A DNA stretch of 32,000 bases from Candidatus Saccharimonadota bacterium (GCA_030429145.1 JAUIDC010000001.1:780001-812000); one strand, 5' to 3'. Shown: positions 9,610-29,929, numbered from the stretch's first letter. A program made the numbers and translations. The notes: generated from the letters alone by a model not told the origin.

Positions 9610-9648
9610 TGTTGATGTAGTGTTTATTTTGGTTTTGGTTTTGTTTTT

Positions 9649-9680: not shown

Positions 9681-9718
9681 TTGTTTCAATTTGAAAGTAA
9701 ATCGCTACTCTGTCGGGT

Positions 9719-10759
9719 ATGAACTATGAGCGCTTTGATAGAGAAGATAAGAAAATATTTTTAGTAGATATGAGGCAGGATAAGAGTGCGTCAGGTTTTT
9801 CATCGTTGGCTGATGCGGGGATACGTAAGATGCTGAACGAAAAGAAAAAAGTACTTATTATTGCGTCGAAAAAGGGCTTCGCATCGTGAATGCTTTGCGA
9901 TGATTGCGGATTTATCCCGAAATGCGACCATTGTGACATCCCTATTGCTTTTCATAACGATCCACAAAAACAGCTTTATGGGATCTGCCATATCTGCAAG
10001 AAGCACTATCAGCCTTTTCCTACTTGTCCGAAATGCTCAGGATTTAACATTAAACTCTATGGGACTGGTGCTCAAAAGGTCGAGACGTTGCTAGAAAAAG
10101 AATTTGGTGCGAAGAATATCGTTACGGTTGATTCGGAGAGTGCAAATAGTCAGGCAAAGGTGAAAAAATTACAACTTGCTTTACCAGATGCGGATATTGT
10201 TGTAGGAACTTCCCTGTTAGCCACTCCTCCTGCAGATTGGAAGCCAGATATGGTGGTGGTGATGAATGCAGATGCAGGACTTCACATTCCTGATTATAAG
10301 TCGCACGAAAAGGTGTTCACAGGATTATCGACTATCGTGAATAATTACTCGAATAATATCATAGTCCAATCATATAAGAGTGATCATCCATCGATACGTT
10401 GTGCGTGTAGTGGCAATATGGATGAGTTTACTAAAACTGAAAAGGCATTTCGCAAAGATCATGGCTACCCGCCCTATGCACAGCTGGCAGTTATCCTCTA
10501 TAAAAATGAGATAGAACAAAAGATGTTTACCACGGTCAATAAACTCTATCAGGAACTCCTCTTTCTCAATGAAAAAAATGGTAGCAGTATCGAAATGTAT
10601 GCTACTCCTCCACTTGTTTACAAGATGTATGATAAATATAGATACAATATTGTCTTAAAGTGAGAAAATATTCGTCCATTTCTTGACGATGCGTTTGAAA
10701 AACTTAATATGTTTGGCCGCTGATTTAAAATAGATCGGATGCCTGAAAGTTTGGTATAA
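9719..10759 (+). CDS. priA: PriA-like primosomal protein N', C-terminal half only (Cys-rich region, degenerate helicase lobe 2, C-terminal domain)
   Basis: ATG 9719 has TAA 9698-9700 upstream in frame. The product starts MNYERFDREDKKIFLVDMRQ...KKVLIIASKKGFAS-G-MLCDDCGFIPKCDHCD...CHICK...CPKCSG...LYGTGAQKVE and ends ...YNIVLK-G-ENIRPF...FGR-G-FKIDRMPESLV. In-frame TGA lie at 9887, 10661 and 10721. The alignment by eye begins at about residue 400 of E. coli PriA. Confidence 0.75.
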
Positions 10760-10853
10760 GTCAATATATTATATCAGTCAAATATCTACTGGTAATCTTT
10801 TACCAAATATATATTTTATAGAACGTTTGTTTCATTATCGAAAGAATTATAGC

Positions 10854-13115
10854 ATGGATATACAGAAATATATAAGCGGACAGCTCAATCACGAACAGAC
10901 AAAAGCAGCACTTCATGCAGACACCTCTGCACTTATCCTTGCAGGTGCATGATCAGGAAAAACCAGAGTACTCACATATAAGATTGCCTATCTCATCTAC
11001 GAGAAAAAGATAAAACCAGCGCAAATTCTTGCGGTGACGTTCACCAATAAGGCCGCGAGAGAGATGAAAGAGAGACTGGTACACATCGCAGAAGAGATAG
11101 CAGATATGTCGCAGGAGAAATCCGCTGAACCGGTTGATTTCGATGCGATGATTGCCGGCGAAGCAACGGGGAACACAGGTGGCTCTATGCCTCGTTATGG
11201 GCTACAATCATTTCAGTGGATAGGAACATTTCATGGTATGTTCCTTAGATTTTTGAAAGAAGAGATGAAACATGTAGAAGATTTGGCATGGAATAGTAAT
11301 TTTTGAGTATATGATGAACAGGAGATAAAGTCGGTATTGAAAGAGATTATTAAAGAGTTGAAGATGGAAAATGATGTTGAAATCAAAGAAGCAAGATCGT
11401 TTATCTCTAAGCTCAAGTGACAAGGTATTACAGCGAAGCAGTTTGGCCATGGTAATGATGGCTATGAGCAAACTATGGGGATGATCTACGAAAAGTATGA
11501 GAAGAAGCTTCATGAGTGCAATAGTATGGACTTCGACGATCTCCTTCTCGTTCCCTACCTGATAATGAAGAAATATCCTGATGTTTTGAAACGTTGGCAG
11601 GAGAAATTTCGTTATATTCTTGTTGATGAGGCGCAGGATACCAACTGGATTCAGTTTGAACTTTTGAAACTCTTAACAGGAGGTGGAAGCAATATCACTT
11701 TTATCGGTGATGACTATCAGAGTATCTACCGTCGGCGTGGTGCAGTCATGGAAAATTTCTTACAGGTAAAGAAAATCTGGCCAGATATCGAAATATTTAA
11801 ACTACAAACAAACTATCGTTCGCGTCCACATATCGTTCACGCGGGTAATGCTATCATCAAACAAAATAGAAACCAATACGATAAAAATGTCGTACCTCAT
11901 CGTAGTGGCGAAGAGAAGATCATGGTCTTTACGCATGGTGATGAGACTGATGAGGCGATGACACTGATAGATCTCATGAAAAAGATCAAGAATGACAAAC
12001 AGAAACAGTGGGCTGACTTCGCTATTTTGTATAGAACAAATGCTCAGTCTGCTGTCTTTGAGCAAGTACTGCTTCAGGAAGCCATACCATATAAGGTCTA
12101 TGGTGGTTTTAAGTTCTTTGAGAGAAAAGAGGTAAAAGATGTACTCTCATATCTGAAATATCTACTCAATCCGAGAGATGCAGTAGCTCTCAAGAGAATT
12201 ATCAATACACCAAAAAGAAAGATTGGTCCTGATACGGTTGCAAAGCTCGAAGAGTATGCACAGGAGCATGGAGTGTCGTTTTCTGAGGTCGCTGAGCAGA
12301 TAGACATGATGCCAGTACCTTTGGGTCCTGCAGCACAGAAAGCTATCAGTCAATTTATGACCTCTATGAAGTTTCTAAAACAGTCTGCAGATGGACTTTC
12401 ACCTGCTCAACTGATCGATCAGCTTGTGAAGACTATTAAATATAGAGACTATCTGATAGATTCTGAATGACGCGAGATTGGTGAAGAAAAATACGAAAAT
12501 ATCGGTCAGCTTATCAATATTGCTTCAAAATATGACAGTGATGAGGTCGTTGATCTTAAAAATGGTATGGTACTCCTCTTGCAGTTTCTTGAAGAGGTCT
12601 CACTTATGACTGATATCGAGGAAAATGCTGAGGGAGAACTCGATGCGGTAAAACTTATGTCTGTGCATTCAAGTAAGGGGCTTGAGTTCTCTGTCGTGTT
12701 TCTTGTAGGATTAGAGGAAAATATTTTTCCGCTCTCAAAAGCCGCTTTTGATGATGCTGAGATGGAAGAAGAGAGACGTTTGATGTACGTAGCTATTACT
12801 CGTGCCAAAGACCATCTCTTTATCTCTCATGCAAATAGCCGTAAACAGTGGGGACAAACAAAATTCAATGAAGCATCTCGCTTTATTGAGGAGATACCTG
12901 AAGAACTTAAAAAGCCTTTTGATCTCACTGCAGGTTGACCTTCGGCTGGTCGCTACGTGGTACAGGCAGACCTTGATGCTGGAGACCAAGTGAAGCATAA
13001 GCTCTTTGGTATGGGTATAGTCGAAGAGGTGCGACGTGATGTCGCCGTGGTCAGATTTCAGAACGAGAAGTTTGGTGTGAGAAAGATAGAGGCGAGATTT
13101 TTAGAGAAGAAATAA
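10854..13115 (+). CDS. pcrA: ATP-dependent DNA helicase PcrA/UvrD (753 aa)
   Basis: Four track fragments share one frame. Walker A gca ggt gca TGA tca gga aaa acc reads AGA-G-SGKT, with TGA at 10950-10952. Other motifs are [41 protein letters not shown] and YVAITRAK. Five in-frame TGA. Stop is TAA 13113-13115. Confidence 0.92.
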
Positions 13116-13148
13116 GAAAAAGCCATCGGAGATCCCGATGGCTTTTTG
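13116..13148. terminator. bidirectional rho-independent terminator between convergent genes
   Basis: aagccatcgg pairs with ccgatggctt. An A-run precedes the stem and a T-run follows it. Confidence 0.7.
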
Positions 13149-13166
13149 TCTACCTGTTGTCTATAG

Positions 13167-13814
13167 CTATTGCATGACTTTCATGTTTTTTAGTTGTAAT
13201 TCTTGTACAATAGCATTCAAAATAGTGTTCTTCAATAATTCATGCTCTGGAGCAGCAGTCCGTAATATCTCCCATATTGATCTCTGTTCATCTGGATAGA
13301 TATTTTCAAAGAACTCTTCGGGCTTGCCTGAGATCTTGTTGAATATCCTTTGTCCTCCTGGTCCGAATGCTGGACTGGCTAATGCAGGGATAGCGTGTGA
13401 GCGCACAGCATTATACTCATGTATGATGTCATATGGGCTGGATGCATCATTATTACCTCCAATGAAAAGAACAAAGTCAGGCCTCAATACTTCAAACAAG
13501 AAGAACCTATGATCTGCTCTTATTTTTTCTATTTGTCCTTTGTTGGACCCATGCCTTGCGGCTGGATATGCAGCTTCTATATATTGGCTGTTCTCATAAG
13601 GGAAATGATTATGGAATGTATGTGTAGGAGCAGACTTTGCCGCTTCCTTAACCAACTCCCAGAGAGTGCCTCCTCCGGCATTGATAACGGTTACTCCTTT
13701 TAGAGCAAATAGAGACTCTAATAAGGAGAGAATGTCTTGTTCTTGTGCTGTACCGAATTTTGCTTCAACATGTGGAGAGCCGACAATTAAGATGTTTTTT
13801 TTGAAACCTTTCAT
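13167..13814 (-). CDS. Rossmann-like protein, possibly SLOG/LOG-superfamily (TIGR00725-like); function unknown
   Basis: ILIVGSP...(about 30 aa)...VINAGGGTLWELV...DFVLFIGGNNDASSPYDII resembles the Gly-rich LOG/SLOG layout. This is a weak by-eye assignment. No in-frame TGA. Confidence 0.55.
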   Translation of the reverse strand: MKGFKKNILIVGSPHVEAKFGTAQEQDILSLLESLFALKGVTVINAGGGTLWELVKEAAKSAPTHTFHNHFPYENSQYIEAAYPAARHGSNKGQIEKIRADHRFFLFEVLRPDFVLFIGGNNDASSPYDIIHEYNAVRSHAIPALASPAFGPGGQRIFNKISGKPEEFFENIYPDEQRSIWEILRTAAPEHELLKNTILNAIVQELQLKNMKVMQ

Positions 13815-13899
13815 GATATTTAATATTTAGTTTTTGTTAATATTTAGATTATTAGAAAATGATTGTATATTTATATTAAATTAAGTCAATATAATCGTT

Positions 13900-15426
13900 T
13901 TAGTGAATCTCTATCTGAAAGCTCACTGTCTTGATGCTGTTATCTGTTCCATTTTGCATCACATACAACGCATTATGAGAAAATGGCGTGCTGAAGAGCT
14001 CACTTGATTTCATCTGTCACTGGATGTTAGAGATGTCGACATGTTTAGGTGTGTAGACAACTCCTCTTGTTGACCAGACAGGATAGAGACCAAGGATTGT
14101 CTTTTCTCTGATGGTAAGTTTGATGCCGTACTTTTCTTCGAGAGCAGCTATCTCTTCTGGATATGAAGGTGGAATGTTGAGAGCATAGCTTATCTTCACA
14201 TCATACTTACCTGGAAGAAGGTCTTTGATATTGACGATGTCATGAGTCGTACTTAAGACTGTTTTCCCAGCTACGTCAGAAAATGTGATATGTTTCGTGA
14301 TAAACATGTCGATCTTATTGTAGCTGTTATTGTAATCTCGAAAATAGATTTGATCATCGCGGAAGCTGGTTGTAAGCCCTTGTGTTACCAATGATTTGGT
14401 AAGTCCTCCACCGATATCGTCAAGGTAGACATGGAAATAGTTGTTGTCTATAAGATGGCGGATATTTTTTACCATGTTTTTGATGATAGTATCCTTTTGT
14501 GTATTGATAATCTCGGCGACCTCTTTCATATAGTACTCTTTCTTGTTTGGAAGGTTTTCTCCACGGATAATATCAGTTGCTGCATTGGTAAACATCCACT
14601 CTCTGAGCTTCTTGTCAAAACCAGGGATAAGATCGGCAAAGGCTTCAGAGTTCACAAAAATAACTCCTCTTACCTTTTGATTGAACACTTTTTCGTAGAG
14701 AGTCTTGATGTTCTTTCCGTCTATATCAGTAAAGCCGAACTTATTGGATGCGAGGAAAGTAATGGTGTCTTCGCCCGAGAGGAAGGTATTTGTAGCCCAA
14801 GCTGGAGCTTGTAGTGTTGCGTACGGATCAACTTTGTTTGGATAGTAGCTGTCCATAAGCTGGATGTCCATAATCTTTGCATCTTTTATCGTCACAATAG
14901 CAAATGAACCAAAGAAACCGCCATTTGGACGTTTTTCTGCGCCATTTTGTAAGATGACGAGGTATCTTTGCTCCTCTTTTTCGCCTAGTAGCGAGAAAAT
15001 GTCATCGTTGTATTGTGAAAGATCGCTAACAAGGTCTATGATGCCTGCATAGTCATGGAGTCCAAGCTGCTTGAGTTGTTCTGGATTATTTGAGAGATAT
15101 TGCAGGATATACTGCATATTCCCCCTATTGTCTCTAATAAAGTACTCCTGCTCTTTGCTGTAGTTTTTCTTTACGTCGTTGATCGACATGATGAGATTGG
15201 CCGTCTTTTGATCCCACCCCATGAAATAGAAAGCGATATCTTCTAAGTTGTTCTCAAAAAGGTCCGTCTTATTTTCGGCAAAGACAAGCTTGGTGATGTT
15301 ATTGTAGAAAGCGAAACATGAAAACGCAAAAAAGACCAACACAACAAATCATCGATTGAGGTGTTTTACATAAAATTTCCAATCTCTCTTTTCTGGCTTC
15401 TTCCAGCCGAATTGGCCACTTTCCAT
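13900..15426 (-). CDS. DUF4012 domain-containing membrane-anchored protein
   Basis: YLVILQNGAEKRPNGGFFGSFAIVTIKDAKI is the signature DUF4012 block. The frame continues through TGA 15349-15351 upstream to ATG 15426, adding a basic N-terminus before the TM segment. It continues through TGA 14017-14019 downstream to TAA 13900-13902. Confidence 0.75.
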
Positions 15427-15559
15427 ACGCTTCTTGACGAGGTTGCTAACGGAACAAAAAATATTCACTGTAACCAATATAATTATACTAACAGGTAGGT
15501 GCAAAAACAAATGGAAAGCTTCTGCTATACATTAGTTAGCGTTGACAAGATGCTACGTT

Positions 15560-16747
15560 TTACTCTTCGTATCTAGGTTGCGCCCATCGAGAACCATACT
15601 CTTTTGACCAAAGAAATTCGAAGTTTGGATCTAAAGGATAGATAAGCTGTCCATTGAGGCGGATAAAGCCCTCTTGCAGACCTGCTGCTATGATAATACA
15701 TCTGACGTTTTGCTGTTCTTGACCTGCTCTACAAGTGGTATTCCAGCTGTTTTGTATCGTCCTACGGATAGCTCCATTTCTTTCGAGACATCCAAAACTA
15801 GTACCACACTGTGGCGTTGCATCGGCTGCTTCAGTGATCAGCTGGAGCTGCATTTCAAAGATGGCTTTATGGAGAGATCTTTTTGCGTCCTCACCATTGA
15901 TATCGTCTTCGCTATCTGCAAGATTGAGATATCTGTCGAACCAGAGCGTTGCACTCTTTAGATGCTCACCTCCTCTTCCATAGACAAGTGCTGCCATGAG
16001 GGGCGTAAGGCTTGGTGCATCATCATGAAAGGCTGAGATCCTGTACTGTAGTGCAGAATCCTCTGCGTTCTGGAGAAAGTAGAAGTAATTAAACGCCATA
16101 TAGTGTGGTATCTCATAGCTTTTACACGGATTACGATGCTGTGTATCAGTTTCATCATATACTACTCCGATAAATGTTTCCTGAGTCATACCAGTGATAG
16201 CGCTCATCTTTTCTGCATCACAGAGGAAATATTCGCCTTTAGCTGCAAGTTTAATCGCATTCTCCCATGAACGTTTTCTGATGGCTAGAACTTCCTCTTC
16301 TTTTCCTTCTTCTATGGCAGTCCTTTGCATAGGCACCACGAGCTGAGCGAACCCATAAGGATATGCCCGATGTGGGGAAAGCGTTGTCAGTGTATCAAGC
16401 AACGTATAGAGGCCTTTGTCTCCATCCGAACCAAGATTTACGCCAATATACTGGATGCTACTTATCCACATGATATCTGCATAGAGCTGTTGCCAAGGCA
16501 TAAAGAGGCATGTTTTACCTGCTTCACGACAGTAGTTATTGTACTGAGGAAAGGTTGGGGTCTGGAAGATAGCGTGAGGTTTATTGCTAGAGATGTCAAA
16601 GTAGACAATATACGGCAATGGATTTACCTTCTCTAGTATGGGGCGATCTTCCAGTGGTCCTCTACGTAAAAAGAGCCGATTATACCCTCAAATAAGTGCA
16701 CCAGCAACAATGATAATAAGTCATGGTAGTATCACTTTTCTCCACAT
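15560..16747 (-). CDS. membrane-anchored hypothetical protein (395 aa)
   Basis: Track ORF 15560..16618 extends in frame through TGA 16688-16690 and 16721-16723 to ATG 16747. This gives an N-terminal TM segment, MWRKVILP-G-LIIIVAGALI-G-GYNRL. No family recognised. Confidence 0.6.
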
Positions 16748-16758
16748 CTTTTGTTATA

Positions 16759-17229
16759 TTATCATAAACGTAAATGTTTCATCTCTTTTTCAGCAAGTCT
16801 TGCAGTGTCTTTCTCTTTGATAATCTGTCTTTTCTCGACTTTACGTCTGAGTTTTCCTACTCCTATTTTTACTTTAATCAATCTTCTACTATTTTCATAT
16901 ACCACTAAAGGCACTATCGTTAAACCTGTTTTCGTCGTTGCGGCTACTATCTTTGCGAGTTCTTTCTTTTTAACTAGTAGGGTCCTTCTTCCTTTCGGTT
17001 CGTAGTCACCCACTCTGTCCGGATCGGCCTTTGAGTAGAGCGGAATGTCCATGTTTGTTATATAGATAGTTTTGCTGTCACGATCTACCTTGACGATGGC
17101 ATCTTTGATGTTTACATGCCCCGTTTTGATAGATTTTACTTCGTGTCACGCTAAAATAATCCCTACATCGTACTCTTGCTGGATATCGTAGTCGTTATAT
17201 ACGTGCTTGTTCTTCGTGATCGTACGCAT
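16759..17229 (-). CDS. smpB: SsrA-binding protein SmpB
   Basis: MRTITKNKHVYNDYDIQQEYDVGIILA-G-HEVKSIKTG, with TGA 17146-17148 at the conserved Gly of L-x-G-x-EVKS. Other motifs are PKGRRTLLVKKKE, GLTIVPL and GKLRRKVEKRQ. The gene ends TGA-TAA. Confidence 0.9.
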
Positions 17230-18687
17230 TTAGTCGCTGATGTTTTCAAATACTTCTTTGAGGTCAACACTACCGTGACCAAAATCTTTCATGTATTTTG
17301 CGAGATGTGGTTTCTTTTTCAAGAGATCTCCGAGTGATTTTATCAGGAAGTCATAATCTCCAGCCTTTGGGTAGACATATGTGCGAGGATCTAACAGTCC
17401 TGTTGGTCTGATGATCTGTTCAATAACCTGTTGGCTATGGTCTGCTTCGTATTGTGCAGGAGTCGCTGATACAAAGAGTGTTTTTGCTTTTTCTTTGATC
17501 TTTTCTACTTGAAAATTTGGTAGATTATGCTTGTCCCAGCCAACAATAGTAGAAAGTTCTTCAAAGTTCAATGGACGATGGTCTGCTGCTGAAGGGAGAC
17601 GGAATCCATGCTCAATAAGCGAGTTTTTTCTCGCTTTGTCTCCCTCTGGCATAGCGCGAAGCTGAGGTACTGACATGTGTGACTCATCGACGATCATGAG
17701 CATGTCATCGGGGAAGTAGTCGAAAATAGTGTAAGGAGCCTGCCCAGGTTGTCTCTTATCAAAATAGATACTGTAGTTTTCTATACCGTTTACAAATCCA
17801 GTCTCTTTGATCATCCTGATATCATACATCACACGCTTTTCTATCCTGTGTGCTTCGATATCTTTCCCTGCTTTTTTGAGCTCTTTTACTCTTATTCTCA
17901 TCTCATTTTCAATAGCCTTGAGAATGTTTTCTAAGTCTGACATGTCTTGTAGATACTGGGAACTTGGCCATATAAGACACTTTTTTACAGTGCCAAGAGA
18001 CTTAAATGAGATGGCGTCTTTGCTTTCAATAAGCTCTAACTTGTCATCATTGAAGTGCATGCGATAAATCACATTTTCAATAGATGCATAGACATCGAGA
18101 AGCTCTCCTCTTAGGTCAAATGTTCCTGGCTCTATCTTGCTTTGCATTGGCTTGTATTGCATGGCAATGAGCTGACGTTTGATAGTGTCACGATCGTAGG
18201 TCTGCCCTACTTCAAAGAAGATGCTATGTTTCTGGAAGTACTCTTTCTGTCCCAAACCATAGAGTGAAGATACAGAAGAAACGACAATAACGTCTTCACG
18301 GGTAAGGAGCGATGCGAGCGTGCCAAGGCGGTACATCTCAATTTCCTTGTTAATGGTTGCTTCCTTCTCGATATAGGTATCTTTATCTGCGAGATAGGCT
18401 TCAGGTTGGTAGTAGTCGAAGTAACTCACGAAATAGTGGACGGCATTGTTGGGAAAAAAGTACTTAAACTCAGTTGCCAGCTGTGCAGCAAGAGTCTTAT
18501 TGTGCGAAATAACCAGAGTTGGTCTCTGGAGTTTTTCGATGACATTTGCCATCGTAAATGTCTTACCTGTACCTGTTGCACCAAGAAGGGTGAGAGCTTT
18601 ATCTCACTTTTCAAATCATGAGACTATCTGCTCTATCGCTTGTGGCTGATCCCCTTGTGGTTCATACGCTGCCTCTAACTTAAACAT
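17230..18687 (-). CDS. uvrB: excinuclease ABC subunit UvrB, truncated after domain 1b (485 aa; C-terminal helicase domain and UvrC-binding tail absent)
   Basis: [44 protein letters not shown], with TGA at 18616-18618 and 18604-18606. Other motifs are YFVSYFDYYQPEAY, IVDESH, GFRLPSAADHRPL and IIRPTGLLDP. After that come 52 further aa, ending in an unrelated tail, and TAA 17230-17232, directly abutting the smpB ATG (TAAATG). Confidence 0.85.
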
Positions 18688-18776
18688 GTCCTAGTGATAG
18701 GGAAAACGAGTTTTTTTGCAATGAAAAAACCTTGATATCTTTATAAATACCAAGGTGTAATAATAAGGTGTCTAAG

Positions 18777-19205: not shown

Positions 19206-19299
19206 ACAAATATTTTTTGAGGTTAATGATGACTTTTCTCAAAAAGAAAATACTCTCTTCGATGAGAGTATTTTACGTAATATAAGATATAAGTCAATA

Positions 19300-21003
19300 T
19301 TACTGTGTAAGGAGCTTTTCTCTTTCGCTCCATACAAAATTGGCTAATTCTTTGATCCTTGCTGGAGAGAAGTCAAATGGTACTCCCGCTGCTTCGTAGA
19401 GTTCAGGGAGCTTTTTTGTAGAACCAAGTGAGAGACCAGTCTTATAAAGCTCCAATGCTTTTTGACGATCTTCTATGTAGTTCTTCCATACGCCAATAGC
19501 CCCAAGCTGTGCTATACCATACTCGATATAGTAAAGAGGGAAATCATAGATATGCATTTGTGCCTGCCAGCGGATATGCTGTACATGCTCGTACTCATTT
19601 CGATCAATAAATGGCTTATATTCATCCAAAAGCTCTTTGAATTTTGCATGTCTTTCTTCGACAGTGTGTGACGGATTTTTATAGAGCCAGTACTGAAAAC
19701 TGTCTACGATTGCTACCCAAGGGAGAATCTCTAATACTCTTTCAATTTCCTGCTCTTGAGCTCTCTTCTTATCTGCAGGATCACTATAAAAGCTGTCCCA
19801 CTCATACATACTCATAAGTTCCATACTCATAGATGCAACTTCAGCCATCTCTATGGGGAAATCTTTGAAGATGTTGAGAGGGATACCTTTTTCTTCTATA
19901 CAAAAGCTATGCATTGCGTGTCCTGCTTCGTGGACAAAAGTGACAACATCCTGCTGCACTCCTGCTGCATTCATGAAGATAAATGGATAGTGTGAAACAG
20001 CAAGAGGATAATTATAGCCACCTGGTGCTTTACCAGGTCTTGATGATAGATCAAAGTGTCCATGTTCTTTCATAGTGCGTAGGTTGTCCGCAAACTCAGA
20101 AGATACAGCTCATACTGCTTGTGTTCATTTTTCTAAGAGTTCATCTCCTGTTTCAAATGGGTTCAGAGGCTCGAGTCATTGTTCAGTAGCATCTTCATCA
20201 TATGGCTTAATCCCATCTATACCAAGTTTTTTGCTTCTTTCTTCATATATCTTTTGTAGTAACGGAACTATATGCTCTTTCACTCCTTTGTGAAAATCAA
20301 ATACATCCTGTTGTGTGTAGTCAAATCTTCTAAATGCATCCCACTGGTACTCAATGAAGCTTTCATACCCAGCATTTTTGGCGATCTGTGTTCTTAGTTG
20401 TATAAGCTCTGAAAGAAGATTATCCAAGGTCTCTTTGTCTTGTTCTCTTCTTGTTCGCATCTTATCATATACCTCTTTTCTGATGACTCTATCAGACAGT
20501 TCAAGGTATTTCTTTGCTTGTTGCATCGTCAATTCTTTTCCGTCGTGTTCTATAGACATATCGCCTGCAATTTCATCGTATTGTTTTTGCTTGTCAGCCA
20601 ATTCTACAAAAAGAGGGATATTCTCTTCTCTATACATTTCTAGTGACTTCTGGATGCCTCTCAATCGTATCTTATATCAACTATTTTCTTGTTGTAACTC
20701 CTCTAGTCCAGGGAGAGCAATGATCTTCTTATTTAATAGGTCCTCGACCTCTTGTATTTTAGGGCTCACCTCTTTGATGAAGGTCTCATATGCTTTCTTA
20801 TATTCCTCATTTTTTGTGTGGCATGACTGATGGATGTATCTTCGTGCAAAATCTTCACTTAAAAATGATTGAAGTGCATCATAATCCTTTATCCACTGCT
20901 CTGTCTCTTCTTTCGTGCTTATTTCACGTTCAACGAGATTGTCAAAATATGGTTTGATGTCCTCGTAGCTGTTGATGGTCAGATTGGTGAGATCAAAGTT
21001 CAT
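19300..21003 (-). CDS. pepF: M3B oligoendopeptidase F-like zinc metallopeptidase (567 aa)
   Basis: Track ORFs 20677..21003, 20176..20664 and 19300..20073 share one frame and are joined by 4 TGA. The HEAGH zinc motif lies in VTFVHEAGHAMH. The overall layout matches PepF. Confidence 0.8.
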
Positions 21004-21027
21004 GAAAGGTAATGATTATAATATAAA

Positions 21028-22038
21028 CTACTTTTTGATAATAAGTATCTGTCTACCGACTTTTTGCTTTGGTCTTTTATAGACTTCTTCGACGAACTCG
21101 TAGTTCACCTTATTGTCATTGAGCCATTCTTCAAGAGATTCTTTCACATAACTGGCTGTTCATTGATGAATAGGTATCGTGCAGACTACTGTTATATACT
21201 CATAGAATGAGTTGATATTCTCGAAAAACGCTTTGTAGAGCTTCACAATGTCATCTTGAGCTTGATAGATCTCTTTGTCTCCTGTTTTCTCTGTAATGAT
21301 GGGTCATAGCCACCCTTCCGTCACGATCAGATTAACGTGCTGTAAAAATGGTTTCTTGAGGGGCTCAAAGATATCATGTTTGAACACAGTTATCCTCTTC
21401 TCTTTTTGCGCAAGGTCCTGCTCTTGCCATCGCTGAGTATTCTGTTTCATGGCTGTCACATCTATATCCGATGCGATACAGTCGTATCCAAGGTAATTGA
21501 CGAGAAAGGCAGTAGTTCCAAGTCCTACAAAAGGATCATATACAGTGATATCATCATCATCATGGCACTGGCTCATACCCATATTTATCATCATATGAGT
21601 GAGTTTCGCTGGCATCATACCTATTTTCATACTATTTACTGGTTTTTCAAAATCTATCGCTTCATAAAGCGAAATATCCTGATATCCTTCGATAGCGATA
21701 ATATTCTCTTCTATAACGAGATATTCTTTCCCTTTTTCTTTTACTTCAAGGTCTGTCTTCGTAGGATCTACTTCTTTAAACCTCCTTGTGAGTCCCTCTT
21801 TTTTCACCTCTTTTCCAAAATCTCTCTCATTGGTTCCTATGATATCGACAGGAGTAATGTCCTTCTTTGTAATACACTTTCCCCATTTTATGATACCAGC
21901 AAGTTTTGATAATAACTCTGGTTTTTTTGTGTCAAAAAGGACGATATTTTGAGATATCGTGATGTTTGTTGGCTGTACCAGCTCAAGCTCTTTGAGAGAA
22001 ATGTGTTTGTGTTTACCGAGCACTGCGCCGTACATCAA
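21028..22038 (-). CDS. class I SAM-dependent methyltransferase-like protein (UPF0020/Trm11-like) with a non-canonical motif IV
   Basis: SAM motif I is VYDPFVGLGTTAF. At the position of (D/N)PPY the sequence reads LIVTEGWL-G-PII, with TGA at 21304-21306. A second TGA lies at 21160-21162. Stop is TAG 21028-21030. Confidence 0.55.
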
Positions 22039-22061
22039 GAATGTATTAGTTAGAGGTAAAA

Positions 22062-22517
22062 TTAGGTATTTTTGATATTCGCAAGTTTCATGTCTGCTCC
22101 AATCTTTTCGATTTCAGTAAGTTTTTTTGCCAATTCTTCAGGATTGTCTCCGTCTTTGAGTTCTTCAGCCTCTTTGATAAGTGTGTTTTTCATCTGCTGT
22201 AGTACCTCCTCACTACTTTCAGGATTGACCGTTACGTCATTGGCAAGAATAGTGATGTTTTCGCCATCTACGTAGATAAGACCGTTGGAAACGCTGAGGA
22301 AAATCTTATGGTCTTTAAAAAGAAACTGTGCATCTTTGACCAGTGAGACGGTAAGCACCTCTTCTGGCTGTATCTGCATGATCCCAGGTTTTAAGATAGA
22401 CATAAGCGGGATGTGGTTTTTGAGGACGGTGATCTCCCCTATTTCGGTTGGAATTGAAGCTGATACAATATTTCCCGAGAAGATCGTTTTGTCGGGAGAT
22501 GTGACTTTGAGATACAT
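22062..22517 (-). CDS. atpC: F-type ATP synthase epsilon subunit
   Basis: LKVTSPDKTIFSGNIVSASIPTEIGEITVLKNHIPLMSILKPGIMQI...SNGLIYVDGENITILAND matches the AtpC beta-sandwich, and a helical tail follows. Confidence 0.8.
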   Translation of the reverse strand: MYLKVTSPDKTIFSGNIVSASIPTEIGEITVLKNHIPLMSILKPGIMQIQPEEVLTVSLVKDAQFLFKDHKIFLSVSNGLIYVDGENITILANDVTVNPESSEEVLQQMKNTLIKEAEELKDGDNPEELAKKLTEIEKIGADMKLANIKNT

Positions 22518-22595
22518 ATAGTGAATGAGTTTATTTCCTAAAGCCTAGTTGGTCGTTGGTTACATAGTAGTGAATGGCAGTTTTTTTTCAACAAG

Positions 22596-22635
22596 AAAAG
22601 CCGGGGCGCAGTCCGTCGACACCTACCGGCTTTTG
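22596..22635 (-). terminator. terminator after ftsZ
   Basis: agccgg (22599-22604) pairs with ccggct (26-31 of the 226xx block, i.e. 22626-22631) around a GC-rich loop containing gtcgac. A T-rich tract follows on the minus strand. Confidence 0.5.
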
Positions 22636-22659
22636 TATGTAGAATACTTCTACCAATGT

Positions 22660-23871
22660 TTACTTCCCTTCGTTCATAAGTCTTTTTCTCATGAAAGGAG
22701 GAGTCTCAAAGTCCTGTTGAGGTTTTGCCTCTTCAGGAGTTTCTTGCTTTGCAGGAGTGTTGTCTCTTGCAGTGTTGAGCTCTCTTGATACGAAATCTTC
22801 GCTTCTGCTTGCTCTAGCACCACCCATGAAACCACTTGCTCTTGTTCCACCAAACTTTCCAGCGCCACTCATCTCTCTGAGTGAACCACCTTTGATCATT
22901 GTGTCCTGATTTCCTTCAGAGAATCCAGTAGCAATGATGGTTACCTTTACTTCACCTTGGTATGACTCGTCGATTGACATACCCCAGATGATGTTTGCAT
23001 CTGGATCTGCGATCTCTTCTACGATGCGAGCTGCCTCCTGTACTTCAATTGGAGTCAGATCATCACCACCAGTCACGGCAAAGATGATGTTTGTAGCACC
23101 TGAGAGATGAGACTCGAGAAGAGGGTTATCGATAGCTCTTCTTGCAGCCTCTACTGCTCTTGCTTCACCATCACCATATCCGATACCAAGAAGTGCAGTA
23201 CCAGAGTTTTGCATGATACGCTTGATATCCGCAAAGTCGATATTGATGAGTCCTGGCTTGATAACAAGGTCAGTGATACCCTGTACACCGAGTGTTAGGA
23301 TTTTATCAATCATAGAGAATGCTTGTTTGAACGTTGTCTTTTTATCAACGATGTTGAAGATCTTGTCGTTAGGAATGATGATAAGCGTATCAACATTGCT
23401 CTTAAGTCTTTCAAGACCATCAGTTGAGTTGATAAATCTCTGTTTCCCTTCAAAAGAGAATGGCTTTGTAACAACTGCAACAGTGAGGATTCCCATCTCT
23501 TTCGCTACCTGAGCGATAACAGGAGCACCACCAGTTCCAGTTCCTCCACCCATTCCGGCAGAGATAAATACCATATCTGCATCTTTGAGAACATGCTTGA
23601 TGCTTTCTACATCTTCTTCGGCAGCCTTTCTTCCGATATCTGGATTAGCTCCAGCTCCGAGACCCTTTGTAAGGTTGAGACCGATATTTACTTTGTGAGG
23701 AGCGAGACTATTTGCAAGCTGTTGAGCGTCAGTATTTACTGATACAAATTCTACTCCCTGAATTCCTTCTGAAATCATGCGGTTTACCGCGTTCACACCT
23801 GCTCCACCGACACCAATGACTTTTATACGTGCGCCAGGGATAAACTCAGGATTAATTTCTTGAATAACCAT
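22660..23871 (-). CDS. ftsZ: cell division GTPase FtsZ
   Basis: Motifs seen are IKVIGVGGAGVNAVNRM, NTDAQQL, GLGAGANPDIG, AGMGGGTGTGGAPV and the C-terminal PPFMRK peptide. No in-frame TGA. Confidence 0.97.
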   Translation of the reverse strand: MVIQEINPEFIPGARIKVIGVGGAGVNAVNRMISEGIQGVEFVSVNTDAQQLANSLAPHKVNIGLNLTKGLGAGANPDIGRKAAEEDVESIKHVLKDADMVFISAGMGGGTGTGGAPVIAQVAKEMGILTVAVVTKPFSFEGKQRFINSTDGLERLKSNVDTLIIIPNDKIFNIVDKKTTFKQAFSMIDKILTLGVQGITDLVIKPGLINIDFADIKRIMQNSGTALLGIGYGDGEARAVEAARRAIDNPLLESHLSGATNIIFAVTGGDDLTPIEVQEAARIVEEIADPDANIIWGMSIDESYQGEVKVTIIATGFSEGNQDTMIKGGSLREMSGAGKFGGTRASGFMGGARASRSEDFVSRELNTARDNTPAKQETPEEAKPQQDFETPPFMRKRLMNEGK

Positions 23872-23938
23872 ACTGTTGTAAAGTTTATAAAGTTAAAGGT
23901 ATATGTTCAACTAATAGCTTATATTATGATGATTTTTG

Positions 23939-25135
23939 TTAGAAGACATTTTTTATCCACTCTCGTACTTTATTGAGCCGATTTGAGTTGATACCGATAT
24001 TGAAGTTAATGTTTTTGAAGAGACCTCTTCTTCCTTCGTAGTATTTCTCTGATCGAGTGTACACTCCGATAAGATTGATAAACTGTGGATTGAGAGATAG
24101 CTCTCCGAGGTTCATTACTCTGTCTTTTCCATTGTGAGCGACAAGTTTGAAGACAGATTTAGCAAATATATCAAGGTTTTTCATCTTAGCTCCTCCTCCT
24201 ACAAGGATGATGCCTCATGGCAATCTTCCGTCTCTTTCTATCTCAGCGAACTCTTCATTGATGAGTTCGAAGATTTGTTCGTATCTTGCTCCGATGATCT
24301 CCGAGAGGAATCCTACGTCTATCTGTGTATCTTCTACGGGATCCTTTTCATTGATCATGAGTATTCCGTTTGCTTTTTTCATCTCCTCTGCTTCTTTGAT
24401 GTCGACTTGCATACCGAGTGAGATATCTCTTGTGACATCTTCACCACCTACAGGAAGTGTACCATATGCAAGTGGATTGCCCTCTTCATAGACCACATAG
24501 GTCGTATGATTTGCTCCGATATCTACGAGCGCTACCCCAAGGTCTTTCATGTCAAAGTCGAGAGCAACTTCGCTAGCACCAAGGATATTTGGTACGATAT
24601 CAACAACGTTGAGATTGAGTTTGTCGAAGATATCTACGAGATTGTTATAGAAGTTCTTCGGGATCATAAACACATCTGCAACGAGCTCGAGCTTCTTCGC
24701 TTGAAGACCAAGCGGATCCTTTTCTCTCTTCGTATCATCAATAAGCCGGTATACAGGCATGATTTTCAATGTTTCGTAGTTAGCGTGACCGCTTATTTCA
24801 CTCACGATTCTTGAAAGATGCTGAATATCATCATTGGTGATTTTTTCACTCATAATTCTCTTTTGCTCTTGGATTCTTGTTACCATCATCTCAGGATGAG
24901 AGATGCCGATGAAGACCTGTTCAAGAAAATCTCCTCCTAGCTTCTTATGAAATCCGTCAATAATGTTGCTCATAGAGAGCGTAAGGTCGTCCATATCGAG
25001 TACTTTCCCCTTGCGGAGACCTTTTGTCTTGACGATTTCCTTCGCCAAAATCAGCTGTTTTCCGTCGTCTTTTCCAAAGAGAGCCGCTTTGATGTATCCG
25101 TTCCCTATGTCAAATATTGCTTTGAGTTCCTGCAT
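23939..25135 (-). CDS. ftsA: cell division protein FtsA
   Basis: Motifs seen are AIFDIGNGYIKAAL, LVDIGANHTTYVVY and DGRLP-G-GIILVGGGAK, with TGA at 24215-24217. Track ORFs 24215..25135 and 23939..24184 are in the same frame. Confidence 0.9.
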
Positions 25136-25210
25136 ACCTAAATCACCGATACTTAAAGAGATAAAAGCTTTGTATTGTGTTTATGTAAATACTCTGTCAA
25201 TACAAGATGA

Positions 25211-25256
25211 TAAAAAAAAATACCGATAGCTCATGGTTATCAGCATCTTTTTTGCT
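25211..25256. terminator. probable terminator between the pilin-like gene and ftsA
   Basis: Imperfect stem ccgata/tatcag, flanked by A9 (25212-25220) and T6 (25248-25253). Confidence 0.4.
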
Positions 25257-25295
25257 ATATAACTTATGGTTATATGGCTGTAAATTATCTTATTT

Positions 25296-26150
25296 CTAGT
25301 TTATATCTCCTCCTTGTCGGCTTGAACAAAGTCAATTTGCACCATAGGTTTTACACTTCTGTTGATAGACACTATTAACTCTGGTATCAAAGAACATCCT
25401 ATATATCTGTCTACACTGTATGCTTCTGTTGCAGATATTAAAGTTGATGGCACCAGTGTATGCATTTCTGTAGAGTGAGGTGTTATTGATGTCGTGAGTA
25501 TAGCGTAATTTCATTTTTTGAGATACATTTATATCTGTTGTTTCATTTTGAAAGGTAAGAAGGATGGCGGTTGCATCAAAATCGTTATCCAAGGAGATGA
25601 AGTAGTTATTGTTGATACAGCTCACGTGGATATTGTTGTATCCGCTTATGATATTGTGAAATACAGGTAGCTGCGTTGCCATGTACTGATAGGTCGATGA
25701 GGTAAGCACGAGTGGGGCCTCTCCTGTTCCTCTGTAGAAGTTTTGTAGAGATGCTACATTATCAACGTCGACGGTTACTCCTGTTCGACTAGTAGACCAG
25801 CTACTTTGATCAGACCAAATAGAGCCAAGGTTCGGCACTCCTCTTATATCGATACCAGTACCAAAACTTCCTCCACCTGGGTACACAGCAGGAAATCTGA
25901 AAAAGAGAGCTATCCAGTCGGGGCTCGTTGCATTCAATCCTGTCATATTTCCGCCTGAGAGGGATCTGTTTCTACTGAGCAGTGATGCGAGGTGTAGTTC
26001 GTTTACTATACTGTGGACATTGTTAGCGCAGACCTCTCCTTCAAAGTATATTTGATTTTCGCTTGTGAAGAGATTTCTGGACATTAAAAGCATCAACCCC
26101 AAAATAATCATCACTACGATAAGCTCGATAATAGTGAAGGCTTTTTTCAT
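25296..26150 (-). CDS. type IV pilin-like / pseudopilin protein with a prepilin N-terminal motif
   Basis: MKKA-FTIIELIVVMIILGLMLLM has the FT(L/I)IE class III signal with Glu+5. The track ORF ends at TGA 25332-25334. Table 25 extends it by 12 codons (the TGA codon plus 11 more) to TAG 25296-25298. Confidence 0.7.
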
Positions 26151-26175
26151 AGAGACTAATCAGGAAATAAAGAGA

Positions 26176-27321
26176 TTATTTTACTAGTGGTCTGATGACA
26201 TATCTATAGTTTGCATCATCTTTATCCATGAAAATAACTGGTTTTTCTCCGTTAACGATATTAACAGAAATATCACTTCCTTCTATGGCTTTTACAAAGT
26301 CTGTGACATACTTTCCGTTGAGACCCATGGTTGCGTCAGGTCATTCTACGACAGCAGAGAGCGTACTATTTGCCTCACCTCTATCTGTTTCTCCTGAATT
26401 GATGAAAAGTGTGTCTGGTGAGACTTCGAGTGAGATATAATTGTTAATATCTCTTGTAATGATAGAGATCTTTCTAATAGCCTTTTCAATCTGGTTTTTA
26501 TCAATCACTACCTTTGTCTGGAAGTCAGTAGGCATGATATTCTCATTTTCATACTCTGGGAAAGAACCCTGGATAAGCAGAGATGTCATGACAATTTGCA
26601 TATCATCAAGATTTGCACTACATGAGAGAAGATTGTCAGAAAACTTCATAGCTATCTGCTCTCCTCCTTTTGAGATGAAATAGTCTACCACTTTTTTTAC
26701 ATCACCGATGTTGGTCTTTGGTATGATTACGTCCATGTTGCCACCTGCATCTCCGTGGAAATCTATCTTGTATTCGGCAAGTCTGAAAGAGTCTGTACCG
26801 ACGAAAACAAGTTTATGTGCTTTTTCTGTCGCTTTGAGTCTCATAAGGATACCTGTTAAGACAGGAGAGAAATTCTTTTCAGTCACAGCATATTCGACCT
26901 TACCAACACCTTTTGAGAAAGCAGCTGCATCAAATGTGATGCTCTTATCACTCTGTACCTCTGGCACAGCAACGTACTCACTTGCAGAAATTCCTTTAAT
27001 CTTGAAATCATCAGATGATGTTTTGATAGTCATAAGGTCTTTTACGCTATCCACATGTATCTGTACCTGTTCATCATCTATAGTCTTCATGATATCACCA
27101 AATGTTCTTGCATTTACAGTGATAGCACCTTCTGTATCTATACTAGCAGGCATTTGTACTTCAATATACTTTTCCATATCTGTTGCTCTGAGCAAGATAG
27201 TATCTATATTTCCTTTAATATAGATGTTTTCAAGAATAGGTAATGTCGAGTGCTTCGAAACAAATCTTCCTACGATATCGATAACTTCCTGCAGCTGTGC
27301 TGTCTTCAATGTAACTTTCAT
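26176..27321 (-). CDS. dnaN: DNA polymerase III beta sliding clamp
   Basis: The N-terminus MKVTLKTAQLQEVIDIVGRFVSKHSTLPILENIYI is typical. After TGA 26341-26343 the frame continues PDATMGLNGKYVTDFVKAI...YRYVIRPLVK, the canonical DnaN C-terminus. 381 aa. Confidence 0.9.
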
Positions 27322-27358
27322 GCAGATAACAGATTTATAAGGCTAAAAACGAATGTTT

Positions 27359-28063
27359 TTATTGTCAGTAGTTTCTTTTATTTGCTATGCTGTCAAATCG
27401 CTTCAGTGATTCGTCGAGATCCGTACTCGTAAAGTCAGGATAGGTTTTTGGACTAAAGTAGAGTTCGGCATATCCTATCCATCGAGACATAAAGCCTGAT
27501 GTTCTTTGTGCTTCGTCTCCTTTGGTTCTGATGACCATCTCTACAGGAGGTAGTGTACCGAGGTCCATGTGTTTACTCAACTCCTCTTCCGAGATAGTAG
27601 TGATTTGTTTCTTTTCTTCAAGTATCCTATTGATACCTCTTACAATCTCGTCTCTTCCTCCATAATTGAGCGCAAATACTGCATATTTTTCCGAATCAGG
27701 GAATGAGAAGTTCTTTTGTTTATTATCAAGAAACGCTTTAAAGTCATCTGGTATCCCTATGGGATTTCCAATTCGCTTAAAGTTAATATGATGTTCTGCT
27801 AAAAATTCATCTAGATCATTTCCTATCGTTTTGTAGATGCTGAAGATGAAATCTAGCTCTGCTTCTGATCTTTTCTGTAGATTCTCTGTGCTGAGAAATC
27901 GTCCAGTAACCACCTTCGTCTCAGTTGTGGTAAACACATGTTTAAAGAGGTCTATTGTGTTCTTTGCTCAAGCAAAATGACCGTCCATAGGTGCAAGTCA
28001 CTGCTCTTTTGCCCAAGTTCTGTTTCCATCTGCAATGATGGCAATATGCTGTGGATATATCAT
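27359..28063 (-). CDS. uppS: undecaprenyl (isoprenyl) diphosphate synthase
   Basis: MIYPQHIAIIADGNRTWAKEQ-G-LAPMDGHFA-G-AKNTIDL, with TGA at 27998-28000 and 27968-27970. Both align by eye with Gly in E. coli UppS (KKQG, KAGAK). Other motifs are ALNYGGRDEI and RTSGFMSRWIGYAELYF. A third TGA lies two codons before the TAA stop. Confidence 0.88.
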
Positions 28064-28088
28064 GAGTTACAAAATGCTTATATAATGA

Positions 28089-28874
28089 TTAGTCATCAGA
28101 TTTTTTATAGTGCTGTTCATAATAGCTGATACATCTCTGGAGTATGAGTTCGAGCTTTTCCATATGTGCGAGATCTTTTTTATCAATATGTAGTTTCAAG
28201 CTGAAATAGCCCTTGTAGTCGGCCGCATGAAGCTTGTTCATGAGAGAAGGGATATTGAGTATACCATCTCCAGGAATTACATGCGACTGATCGTATTGTG
28301 TTTTATCTGAAAGATAAATGGTCGAGATATACGGCACAAAGTTCTTGAGATTTCTGAGGAGTGTGCTATCAAACTCCTCTTCTTCCAGATTTGCGATATC
28401 GAGACCAAGATTCGCGTGATATGTTTTGATGATTTTAATCACGCTATTGAAACGATATTTGGGAAGTGCAAGGAGGATAGTTCCCTTTTCTGGATTGATA
28501 ATAGAAAATTTGATGTTTGGATTTGATTTCTTGTATGAGTTGAGGTTGTCTACCACGAACTTGTATGATTTGATATTGAAAAACCCTGGAGGGTTGATAG
28601 TTATCGTGTCGACGCCTAGCTCCCCTGCAAGGTCCAATGCCTGATTCATCTCTTTGATATTAATATCCTTCGACGTTTGGATCACTTTCACTGGGAGATC
28701 GTACTTTTCTACAAGTCTTTTGACGTATGCGATATTTCGACTGTCGAAATTCTTCCATATAGCAAGGTCGATACCGTCAAATCCGTTTTTCTTTGCAACC
28801 TCAAAAATAAGGTCTAGTCAATATCCTGTCAGCGTATCGGTACTGAGCAGAAGTGGTGGTCTAGTCTCTGCCAT
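28089..28874 (-). CDS. xylose isomerase-like TIM-barrel (sugar phosphate isomerase/epimerase family) protein
   Basis: MAETRPPLLLSTDTLTGY-G-LDLIFEVAKKNGFDGIDLAIW, with TGA at 28818-28820, is joined in frame to track ORF 28089..28691. The layout is typical of the AP_endonuc_2 family. Weak by-eye call. Confidence 0.5.
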
Positions 28875-29060
28875 GGGCTTTAAGAAACATAAAAACAATA
28901 AAGCTTTGGGATTAATCTATACAAATATCCATATAGTTCAATAGAAAAATGACAAATATTATAAACCATATATATTCTTTCCACGAGGGAGTATTTACAT
29001 AGTTATATCAAGTATCACCTTTCTTTTTTCCAATTTCTCTCTTACAACGATTCTCTACGA

Positions 29061-29091
29061 GTTACTTTTTAGCATTGCCCTAAAAAGTAAC
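29061..29091. repeat. perfect 12-bp stem hairpin
   Basis: gttactttttag (29061-29072) and ctaaaaagtaac (29080-29091) are exact reverse complements with a 7-nt loop (cattgcc). No adjacent U-tract on either strand. Confidence 0.6.
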
Positions 29092-29103
29092 CAAAAAGCT
29101 CTA

Positions 29104-29231
29104 GTCGAATACAGCGTTTGGCGTCACTGCAATTCACGAATGTCATCTCCCTTCCCGACGTGTCGGGTCCCTCGGGTCGATGATAACAGAGTTGTTTGCA
29201 GACAGATTATTTCTCACGCAGTGTATTCGAC
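29104..29231. other. 128-nt structured element closed by a 10+3 bp terminal helix (candidate small ncRNA or MITE)
   Basis: gtcgaataca (29104-29113) pairs with tgtattcgac (29222-29231), and gcg (29114-29116) pairs with cgc (29217-29219). An internal GC hairpin is cccgac/gtcggg (29154-29167). Further complementary segments are ctgcaa/ttgcag and tcatc/gatga. The element is visibly GC-richer than the flanks and has no convincing ORF. Confidence 0.4.
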
Positions 29232-29242
29232 GATTATATTGT

Positions 29243-29929
29243 TTAATCAAGTATCTGGATGCCGGTAGTGTTGAGGGTTGCTTTGTGGATTTCGGCGAGT
29301 TTTTTACAGATTTCTCTAGTGTCGTAGCGGGGGTCTTGTTGGCTTTTATAATATCGTTGGTGAGTATCGATAAGTGATATTTCAGTGAGATTTTTTCGAT
29401 CTTGAAAAAGTTGAGAAGGGGTGCAAAAAAGAGTTTGGATTTGGCCTGTTTTGATACCTCGTCGAGCTTTGTCTTTTTGCACCTGCGTAGATGTCCCATT
29501 GAGTATAACGTACTCTTTGAGGGAGTTGTACGCTGGATTTGTTTTAATGTGATTGTCCATCGTTCGGACATCGGGAAAAACGACAAGTTTCTGTTCAGCC
29601 TTCTTCTTAGTTTTGATTTCTTTGTTGAAGAGGTCTGCTACCTCTCCTGTGACAAAGAGTTTAACGACGTTTTTATATGATGTATAGTATTCGTGTACGA
29701 GTCGGTGAATGAGTGTGAGTGTCTTTTTTGAGAAAAAGTTTGGATAGTACTCATCTACCCTGTCAGATAGAAGAAATTTGTCTTTGTCGACTTTTCGAGT
29801 AGTTTCATCTCCAAGTGCGACGTACATGTCATTTCCACCGACATACAAATCTCCCTCCTTCAAGCCCTCCTGCTTGGTTCGGCAGATCTTATCATGGCCA
29901 TATCGTCACTGGAAGCTGTAGAGGTACAT
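29243..29929 (-). CDS. priA: PriA-like primosomal protein N', N-terminal half only (3' DNA-binding region and degenerate helicase lobe 1; Walker A absent, DEEH replaced by DTHQ)
   Basis: ATG 29929 with TGA at 29906-29908. The product is MYLYSFQ-G-RYGH...LIHRLVHEYYTSYKNVVKLF...QKLVVFPDV...ILNGTSTQVQKDKARRGIKTGQIQTLFCTPSQLFQDRKNLTEISLIDTHQRYYKSQQDPRYDTREICKKLA...TLNTTGIQILD. By eye it aligns with E. coli PriA LVMVPEI...LHSGL..ER..W...G...IVIGTRSALF...LGVIVIDEEHDSSYKQ...RYHARD...ILGSATPALE. Stop is TAA 29243-29245. Confidence 0.7.

Follow-up and report, generated by a model that had tools for sequence, protein, structure and literature searches.

Two separate genes for a PriA homologue with a degenerate ATP site in UGA-recoded SR1/Absconditabacteria-type Patescibacteria

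A 32,000 nt stretch of DNA from Candidatus Saccharimonadota bacterium (GCA_030429145.1, JAUIDC010000001.1:780001-812000; the whole stretch is referred to as the window) contains two open reading frames (ORFs) on opposite strands that are homologous to the N-terminal and C-terminal parts of the protein PriA. The locus raises the question of whether an intact priA was broken in this genome by a single inversion, as the first-pass annotation of the window proposed, or whether two separate genes are the usual form of priA in the lineage. Comparison with related loci shows that the split is not a lesion of this genome. The favoured reading, with a probability of about 0.7, is that the two genes encode a lineage-wide, two-subunit, ATPase-dead PriA pseudohelicase, which is the normal state of priA in UGA-recoded SR1/Absconditabacteria-type Patescibacteria.

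The window was read with genetic code 25, where UGA encodes Gly; an ORF list made with table 11 breaks both priA genes at TGA. The two genes are termed here the N-part and the C-part. Both are table-25 ORFs that begin with ATG and end with TAA, and their coordinates and strands are exactly those of the first-pass annotation:

29243..29929, minus strand: priA N-part gene, 228 aa
9719..10759, plus strand: priA C-part gene, 346 aa

The N-part consists of a beta-rich N-terminal domain and a degenerate RecA lobe 1, and it ends at the equivalent of motif III (SAT). The C-part consists of RecA lobe 2 with an inserted Cys-rich zinc region, followed by a probable PriA C-terminal domain. The N-part has one in-frame TGA, at codon 8, and the C-part has three, at codons 57, 315 and 335. 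The first two of these three, which were compared with the C-part family consensus, match Gly there. The genes are convergent with 18.5 kb between them, and the distance from the C-part start to the 3' end of the N-part is approximately 19.5 kb. The start and stop positions of the N-part are kept in 15 aligned homologues, and the N-terminus of the C-part, MNYExF, is kept family-wide from residue 1.

Public gene calls for the contig of the window were made with table 11 and have both PriA parts cut at TGA (P0001, 194 aa, and P0024, 257 aa). Other database members translate TGA as Trp (code 4) and display W where Gly is expected. Gene calls of these two types will distort homology-based annotation of the SR1 lineage.

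The identification of the two ORFs as parts of one PriA homologue, made in the first-pass annotation, agrees with NCBIfam, PDB and Foldseek matches. The C-part represents the C-terminal 45% of PriA. It matches NCBIfam NF004066 with an E value of 1e-61 (model positions 441-755 of 788), TIGR00595 with an E value of 1e-53 (model positions 164-479 of 509) and PriA chains in the PDB with an E value of 1e-20; the C-part family profile reaches 8e-29 against the PDB. The match to the Pfam family PriA_C (PF18074) has an E value of 2.2e-5 and a score of 25.6 bits, where the cut-off is 26.9 bits, and PF18074 is a precomputed assignment for many C-part homologues. Structure models were made with AlphaFold2 (AF2) from orthologues, P0004 for the N-part and P0025 for the C-part, and not from the translations of the window. 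The P0025 model has a pLDDT of 81, and its top nine PDB matches by Foldseek are all PriA, with E values down to 7e-23, TMq of 0.6-0.69 and approximately 350 aligned columns that cover all 346 residues.

The N-part has diverged further, and its homology to PriA is weaker but real. It matches NF004066 with an E value of 7e-8 and TIGR00595 with an E value of 1e-5 over positions 21-131. A profile of the 15-sequence N-part family, when searched against the PDB, finds PriA as the sole family below an E value of 0.1 (E 4e-7, E. coli residues 243-339). The P0004 model (pLDDT 78, pTM 0.70) also has PriA as its top Foldseek matches (E 3.6e-6). Neither part reaches the curated full-length equivalog cut-offs (209 against 813 bits and 182 against 230 bits) because each part is partial. 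Among the features that define PriA, homology across the helicase core and an eight-Cys region inserted in lobe 2 are present in the two parts; a single polypeptide and intact superfamily 2 (SF2) motifs (Walker A GxGKT, Walker B DEEH, motif VI QxxGRxGR) are not.

The position of the cut was determined by alignment to E. coli PriA, whose sequence was checked by K230, DEEH320 and the segments printed by HMMER. The end of the N-part, TLNTTGIQILD, falls on ILGSATPALETL at about E. coli residue 365 in a MAFFT alignment. Residue 15 of the C-part corresponds to E. coli residue 390 in the HMMER alignment, which places the C-part Met at approximately 370-376, in the YRLLRL strand. The two parts thus abut without overlap, as the first-pass annotation had it, and the cut is at the boundary of RecA lobe 1 and lobe 2, at approximately E. 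coli residues 365/370. Trans-splicing by a split intein was considered and rejected because neither junction has spare sequence: the N-part ends inside the PriA homology approximately 5-10 residues before the C-part begins, and there is no extra sequence at the junction.

The helicase ATP site is built from both RecA lobes. In the alignments this site is degenerate on both lobes throughout the family, and a loop and a Cys-rich region are kept with little or no change:

29666..29689, minus strand: degenerate P-loop equivalent YYTSYKNV, aligned by MAFFT to GVTGSGKT of E. coli; it retains the Lys but has lost the glycines and Thr
29357..29368, minus strand: degenerate equivalent of Walker B, DTHQ, which falls on DEEH of E. 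coli in the HMMER, family and MAFFT alignments
29324..29353, minus strand: loop YYKSQQDPRY, which falls on SYKQQEGWRY of E. coli PriA, a stretch that directly follows DEEH
10322..10345, plus strand: motif VI equivalent GLSTIVNN, from the HMMER alignment to 4nl4, where PriA has QVSGRAGR; the arginine fingers are lost
9896..10036, plus strand: Cys-rich region with four CxxC pairs (C60 C63, C69 C72, C90 C93, C103 C106)

In the N-part, Y82, Y85 and K86 of the P-loop equivalent are invariant or nearly so in the family alignment, and the Walker B position in homologues reads DSHQ, DAHK, QPHK or EPQK. The C-part family consensus has no conserved Arg at motif VI. The most invariant stretch of the N-part is the loop, where Y193, Y194, Q197, Q198, D199, P200, R201 and Y202 are invariant in 15 sequences; it aligns within the region of the aromatic/basic loop of PriA, which crosslinks to the fork junction (PMC5778457). 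All eight Cys residues of the C-part are invariant in 18 homologues and align with the Cys-rich region of PriA, and the region is predicted to bind two zinc ions. The winged-helix domain seems to be absent from the N-part, since only approximately 25-30 residues separate the beta domain from lobe 1 in the secondary structure of the P0004 model.

Searches for relatives show the two parts as stand-alone proteins. A sequence search with the N-part finds 21 proteins and a profile search finds 63; all are stand-alone, are no longer than 319 aa and have 27-65% identity to the window protein. An N-part hidden Markov model (HMM) run against 1.84 billion representative proteins gives 1550 matches, and the best 150 of the 1550 (E values down to 3e-26) are all 287 aa or shorter. 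A search with the C-part finds 145 proteins with 39-79% identity to the window protein, labelled Absconditabacterales where they are named. Among these, the 120 of 145 that were listed are 257-422 aa in length, most of them approximately 345-350 aa, and none of the 120 is large enough for a fused PriA. When each GTDB species was represented by one genome, the N-part was found in 56 species, among them RAAC1_SR1_1 (CP006913.1), a complete SR1 genome, and the human oral taxon HOT-345. Scanning metagenomes with the C-part profile adds 80 further loci.

A total of 143 related loci (1.86 Mb, including the 56 genome-database species and 80 metagenome contigs) was analyzed by tblastn with code 25 and by HMM comparison of all ORFs. 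The N-part is found in 62 loci, the C-part in 81 and both in none, and no fused gene is present in the 143 loci. Every C-part start is preceded by an in-frame stop 0-72 codons upstream. The first-pass annotation had noted that an intact priA elsewhere would make the two pieces relics; phmmer with E. coli PriA detects no full-length PriA in these 1.86 Mb, which represent loci and not whole genomes. Identity across the sampled SR1/Absconditabacteria decreases to 26-30% for the N-part and approximately 39% for the C-part. The long ORFs of all related loci have in-frame TGA, and therefore the split family, as sampled, belongs to UGA-recoded Patescibacteria. The distribution of the two parts indicates that the split is older than the divergence of all sampled SR1/Absconditabacteria.

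Three of these loci have additional features near a PriA part. In L012 (SR1 human oral taxon HOT-345), a 693-aa SF2 helicase ORF at 7872..9953 is directly upstream of the N-part at 10001. It has a weak match to the region of PriA from Walker A to lobe 1 (E 4e-4) and is possibly RecG-like. The N-part of L053 (10001..10761) is recovered by tblastn in two segments with an overlap of approximately 13 bases, so that this gene may be frameshifted, and L102 has an extra C-part-like fragment (9016..9300, E 5e-14) approximately 700 nt upstream of an intact C-part. The oddities in L053 and L102 may represent local decay, duplication or assembly errors.

The genomic context of the two genes was compared between the window, which sits on a 94,580-bp short-read assembly contig (Logan ERR3428547_4705), and a relative on a single 240,818-bp contig (Logan SRR32417865) that is an independent assembly from a different sample. 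The relative has the C-part at 65,038-66,078 on the plus strand and the N-part at 91,275-91,967 on the minus strand, with 63-73% identity to the window and the same convergent geometry, approximately 25 kb apart. Synteny and priA structure in related table-25 genomes thus display the same split and, in this relative, the same arrangement. The C-side neighbors in both contigs are dus, rsmH, the C-part and pcrA. The N-side neighbors in both are lysS, a small ORF, the N-part, an apurinic/apyrimidinic (AP) endonuclease gene, uppS, dnaN, ftsA and ftsZ. The N-side context recurs in ERR4405440, ERR4405439 and the chromosome OZ246420.1, and the C-side context recurs in ERR7015365.

The segment between the proposed breakpoints carries ftsZ, ftsA and dnaN. 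The first-pass annotation also raised short inverted repeats at the two junctions, but a search finds none that pair 9.6-9.73 kb with 29.09-29.25 kb, and the matches elsewhere are at chance level only. Rfam and tRNA scans of the window reveal nothing in the junction gaps. An invertible DNA switch was considered and rejected: the two junctions share no inverted repeats, and each part has a conserved boundary of its own at the cut, a TAA stop for the N-part and an ATG for the C-part. Joining of N-centered and C-centered loci by DNA overlap was also rejected, as the shared blocks of approximately 1.4 kb represent a conserved RuBisCO-like gene and a Clp ATPase gene and not overlapping contigs.

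Both genes show the signature of maintained coding sequences. The proportions of nonsynonymous and synonymous differences (pN and pS) between the window and the SRR32417865 relative are 0.219 and 0.812 for the N-part and 0.181 and 0.733 for the C-part, with a dN/dS of approximately 0.07 for the C-part. These values indicate purifying selection on both halves. Synonymous sites are saturated, yet both ORFs are intact, which argues that the halves are not relics; the suggestion in the first-pass annotation that they are genes rather than debris is upheld. Upstream of the C-part there is a signal found by a consensus scan:

9649..9684, plus strand: terminator-like hairpin and T-tract, 11 bp stem with 7 GC pairs, 35 nt upstream of the C-part ATG

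Because this hairpin precedes its ATG, the C-part probably begins its own transcription unit. The N-part begins 18 nt after the small ORF that follows lysS and may be co-transcribed with both. The halves thus appear to be without operon coupling, as a putative terminator precedes one and the other follows lysS and the small ORF.

The sequence comparisons indicate that an ancestral priA was broken at the linker between RecA lobes 1 and 2 and that the parts have since been kept as separate genes. The ATP site has decayed on both sides, and the DNA- and partner-binding elements have been kept: the N-part retains the beta domain and the fork-contacting loop, and the C-part retains the two-zinc Cys-rich region and, probably, the C-terminal domain. 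By analogy with characterized PriA proteins, the two polypeptides would reassemble non-covalently. The complex would be an ATP-independent platform with the shape of PriA that would recognize abandoned forks and recruit the replicative helicase, like E. coli PriA K230R and Deinococcus PriA. A split between the lobes would be tolerable because, without an ATP site, no catalytic cycle needs the covalent linker. Although both its ATPase and its helicase activity are lost, E. coli PriA K230R supports primosome assembly and near-wild-type growth (PMC5778457). D. radiodurans PriA is likewise without ATPase or helicase activity, binds single-stranded DNA and forks, and interacts with DnaB (PMC4504706). 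PriA structures show the C-terminal domain packed on lobe 1 and the 3'-end-binding domain (PMC5778457). When E. coli PriA is divided in two, by an insertion at 154 with a new start at 157, it is reported to be almost fully functional (cited in PMC5778457).

Several points weigh against the proposal of a two-subunit, ATPase-dead PriA. The match of the N-part to PriA is modest, at 33 bits by family profile, and its first approximately 65 residues match the 3'-end-binding domain of PriA only via Foldseek global alignment, with no Pfam match. Both halves are shown in one genome for two contigs only, that of the window and SRR32417865_260. Both parts evolve faster than their neighbors, with a pN of approximately 0.2 as compared with 0.07 for dnaN. 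The degeneration of the ATPase motifs would also fit decaying relics, with a canonical priA beyond the scanned loci doing the work. Relics are nevertheless very improbable: strong purifying selection and intact ORFs extend across a deep radiation, the eight Cys residues and the YYKSQQDPRY loop are invariant, and no full-length PriA is found in the 1.86 Mb of related loci or among the listed C-part matches. The conserved stand-alone homologues refute the proposal that an intact priA was recently cut in this genome by one breakpoint of a single inversion. The part of that proposal that stands is the geometry, as the halves are on opposite strands and become colinear if approximately 9.70-29.24 kb is inverted; this argument is weak because any pair on opposite strands can be joined by one inversion (a prior of 50%). 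The recent event does not stand, since the split is found in every relative sampled, down to the lowest identities, with no fused form, and the SRR32417865 relative has the same geometry. The start and stop positions of both halves are kept family-wide, no inverted repeats link the junctions, and saturated synonymous sites accompany two intact ORFs. Misassembly or a chimeric join, the trivial alternative mentioned in the first-pass annotation, could be suspected in a contig from a short-read assembly. It is excluded for practical purposes because independent assemblies reproduce the arrangement and the contexts of both halves (SRR32417865, ERR7015365, ERR4405440 and OZ246420.1); stand-alone halves are present in 136 other loci, and the halves end and start at a conserved stop and a conserved start and not at a join.

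The main rival to a reassembled PriA is that each half still functions but has become a protein in its own right, without assembly of the two, e.g., the C-part as a helicase-loading adaptor and the N-part in another DNA-binding role. The halves are never adjacent or co-transcribed, a terminator-like hairpin precedes the C-part, and once the ATP site is gone, catalysis no longer requires the lobes to be brought together. However, both families occur in the same recoded lineage, and both are present on the two contigs long enough to show it. In PriA, the C-terminal domain is packed together with lobe 1 and the 3'-end-binding domain as a single unit (PMC5778457), and an artificial two-piece E. 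coli PriA is reported to work. This alternative is considered unlikely. A separate matter is the origin of the two-gene form, where one ancient inversion at the base of the lineage would have left the convergent geometry of the N-part with the C-part and dus as a remnant. The geometry with dus behind the C-part is seen in the window and in relatives; dus is within 10 kb of the C-part in 21/80 loci and of the N-part in 5/57. The RuBisCO-like gene is found beside either half, and in many genomes an AP endonuclease gene comes after the N-part, whereas in L096 such a gene lies before the C-part. These shared markers hint that the halves long shared one chromosomal neighborhood, but they are suggestive only. 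The opposite-strand geometry has the same 50% prior as above, no locus has both halves within 10 kb, and fission in place with a later relocation would explain the arrangement just as well. Distant genomes differ widely in the genes around each half, so that the record has been overwritten by later rearrangements. An ancient inversion is a possible origin that is not demonstrable from present gene order, and it is regarded as rather doubtful.

When the two parts are concatenated, the domain order is that of canonical PriA (E. coli and K. pneumoniae; 4NL4, 6DGD, 8FAK), with both RecA lobes, the Cys-rich region and, probably, the C-terminal domain in common, and the aromatic/basic fork-contacting loop and all eight zinc-binding Cys residues are kept in the halves. 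Here, in contrast, the protein is encoded by two genes at separate loci, the equivalents of Walker A, Walker B and motif VI are degenerate, and the winged-helix domain is, as judged from the model, seemingly absent. The PriA pseudohelicase of D. radiodurans similarly does not conserve the Walker A and B catalytic residues, but it is a single polypeptide from a different phylum (Lopper et al. 2015, PMC4504706). The loss of the ATPase motifs is likely to be independent of that in Deinococcus-Thermus because the lineages are unrelated. The laboratory two-piece E. coli PriA is a precedent for a PriA that works as two separately translated segments; as cited in PMC5778457, it differs in having an artificial split in the winged-helix linker and an intact ATPase core. 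The SR1 case combines a pseudohelicase and a two-piece PriA in nature, with the cut between the RecA lobes. Dispersed split genes for essential information-processing proteins, likewise cut at domain boundaries in an ultrasmall host-dependent organism with a reduced genome, are present in Nanoarchaeum equitans, where reverse gyrase and alanyl-tRNA synthetase are the proteins concerned; these differ in being other proteins in another domain of life and in having retained catalytic activity.

Full-text literature searches found no paper that links PriA with Absconditabacteria, Gracilibacteria or the candidate phyla radiation, and none on a split priA. A few automatic JGI annotations name the pieces 'primosomal protein N'', and most labels are hypothetical. 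A split, ATPase-dead PriA is apparently undescribed. The arrangement represents a natural experiment on PriA, in which the loop at the fork, the zinc region and the C-terminal domain come out as the indispensable parts, and on covalent linkage of the RecA lobes, which would be dispensable once ATP turnover is abandoned. It bears on replication-restart biology and on the annotation of recoded genomes, in a lineage that includes human oral SR1. Surveys of replication restart in Patescibacteria may wrongly score PriA as missing or broken because table-11 pipelines cut both genes and most are labelled hypothetical. It is proposed tentatively, at somewhat less than even odds, that SR1/Absconditabacteria restart replication with an obligate heterodimeric, ATP-independent PriA encoded at unlinked loci, perhaps as part of a lineage habit of cutting SF2-type proteins of repair and replication at the RecA-lobe linker, as is also seen in UvrB of the same genome. 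Such splits could allow regulation at the level of subunits, or they may reflect relaxed constraint in a reduced genome.

The uvrB gene is also split between its two RecA-like domains. The C-terminal part is absent from the window and from 5.4 kb of the contig past its right end, and it was identified in relatives:

17230..18687, minus strand, window: uvrB N-part, 485 aa, aligns with UvrB residues 5-446, without Helicase_C
122..955, locus L001: uvrB C-part in relatives, 277 aa, adjoins valS, aligns with UvrB residues 429-657 (Helicase_C, UvrB and UVR domains)

The two uvrB parts overlap by approximately 18 residues (the GQIDDLI segment). Unlike the PriA halves, UvrB keeps its ATPase motifs (GATGTGKT, DESH and GRAARN).

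The conserved RuBisCO-like gene encodes 484-486 aa and is found in L031 (6872..8332), L109 (2282..3736) and L123 (11705..13165), which are distant SR1 genomes, with approximately 75% nucleotide identity. It is 0.2-1.7 kb from either PriA half, and the orientations differ. The product is probably a RuBisCO large subunit of a form II/III-like type, as judged by eye from the GGDFVKNDEPQ motif.

No link was found between the priA split and a transposase gene near the left edge of the window (164..997, minus strand), which is of the IS1595 family (ISXO2-like), has an N-terminal zinc ribbon and is approximately 8.7 kb from the C-part. Two ORFs of approximately 273 aa and 205 aa (7908..9609, plus strand) are directly upstream of the C-part and have no Pfam match. 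Neither of the two matches the relative L002 by tblastn at E <= 1e-10, though L002 has called genes at the same positions. A non-coding gap of 368 nt (28875..29242) extends from the N-part stop to the start of the AP endonuclease gene; the corresponding gap is 35 nt in L001 and approximately 145 nt in L004. The gap in the window has no Rfam or tRNA match and contains an AT-rich hairpin, TTACTTTTTAG...CTAAAAAGTAA.

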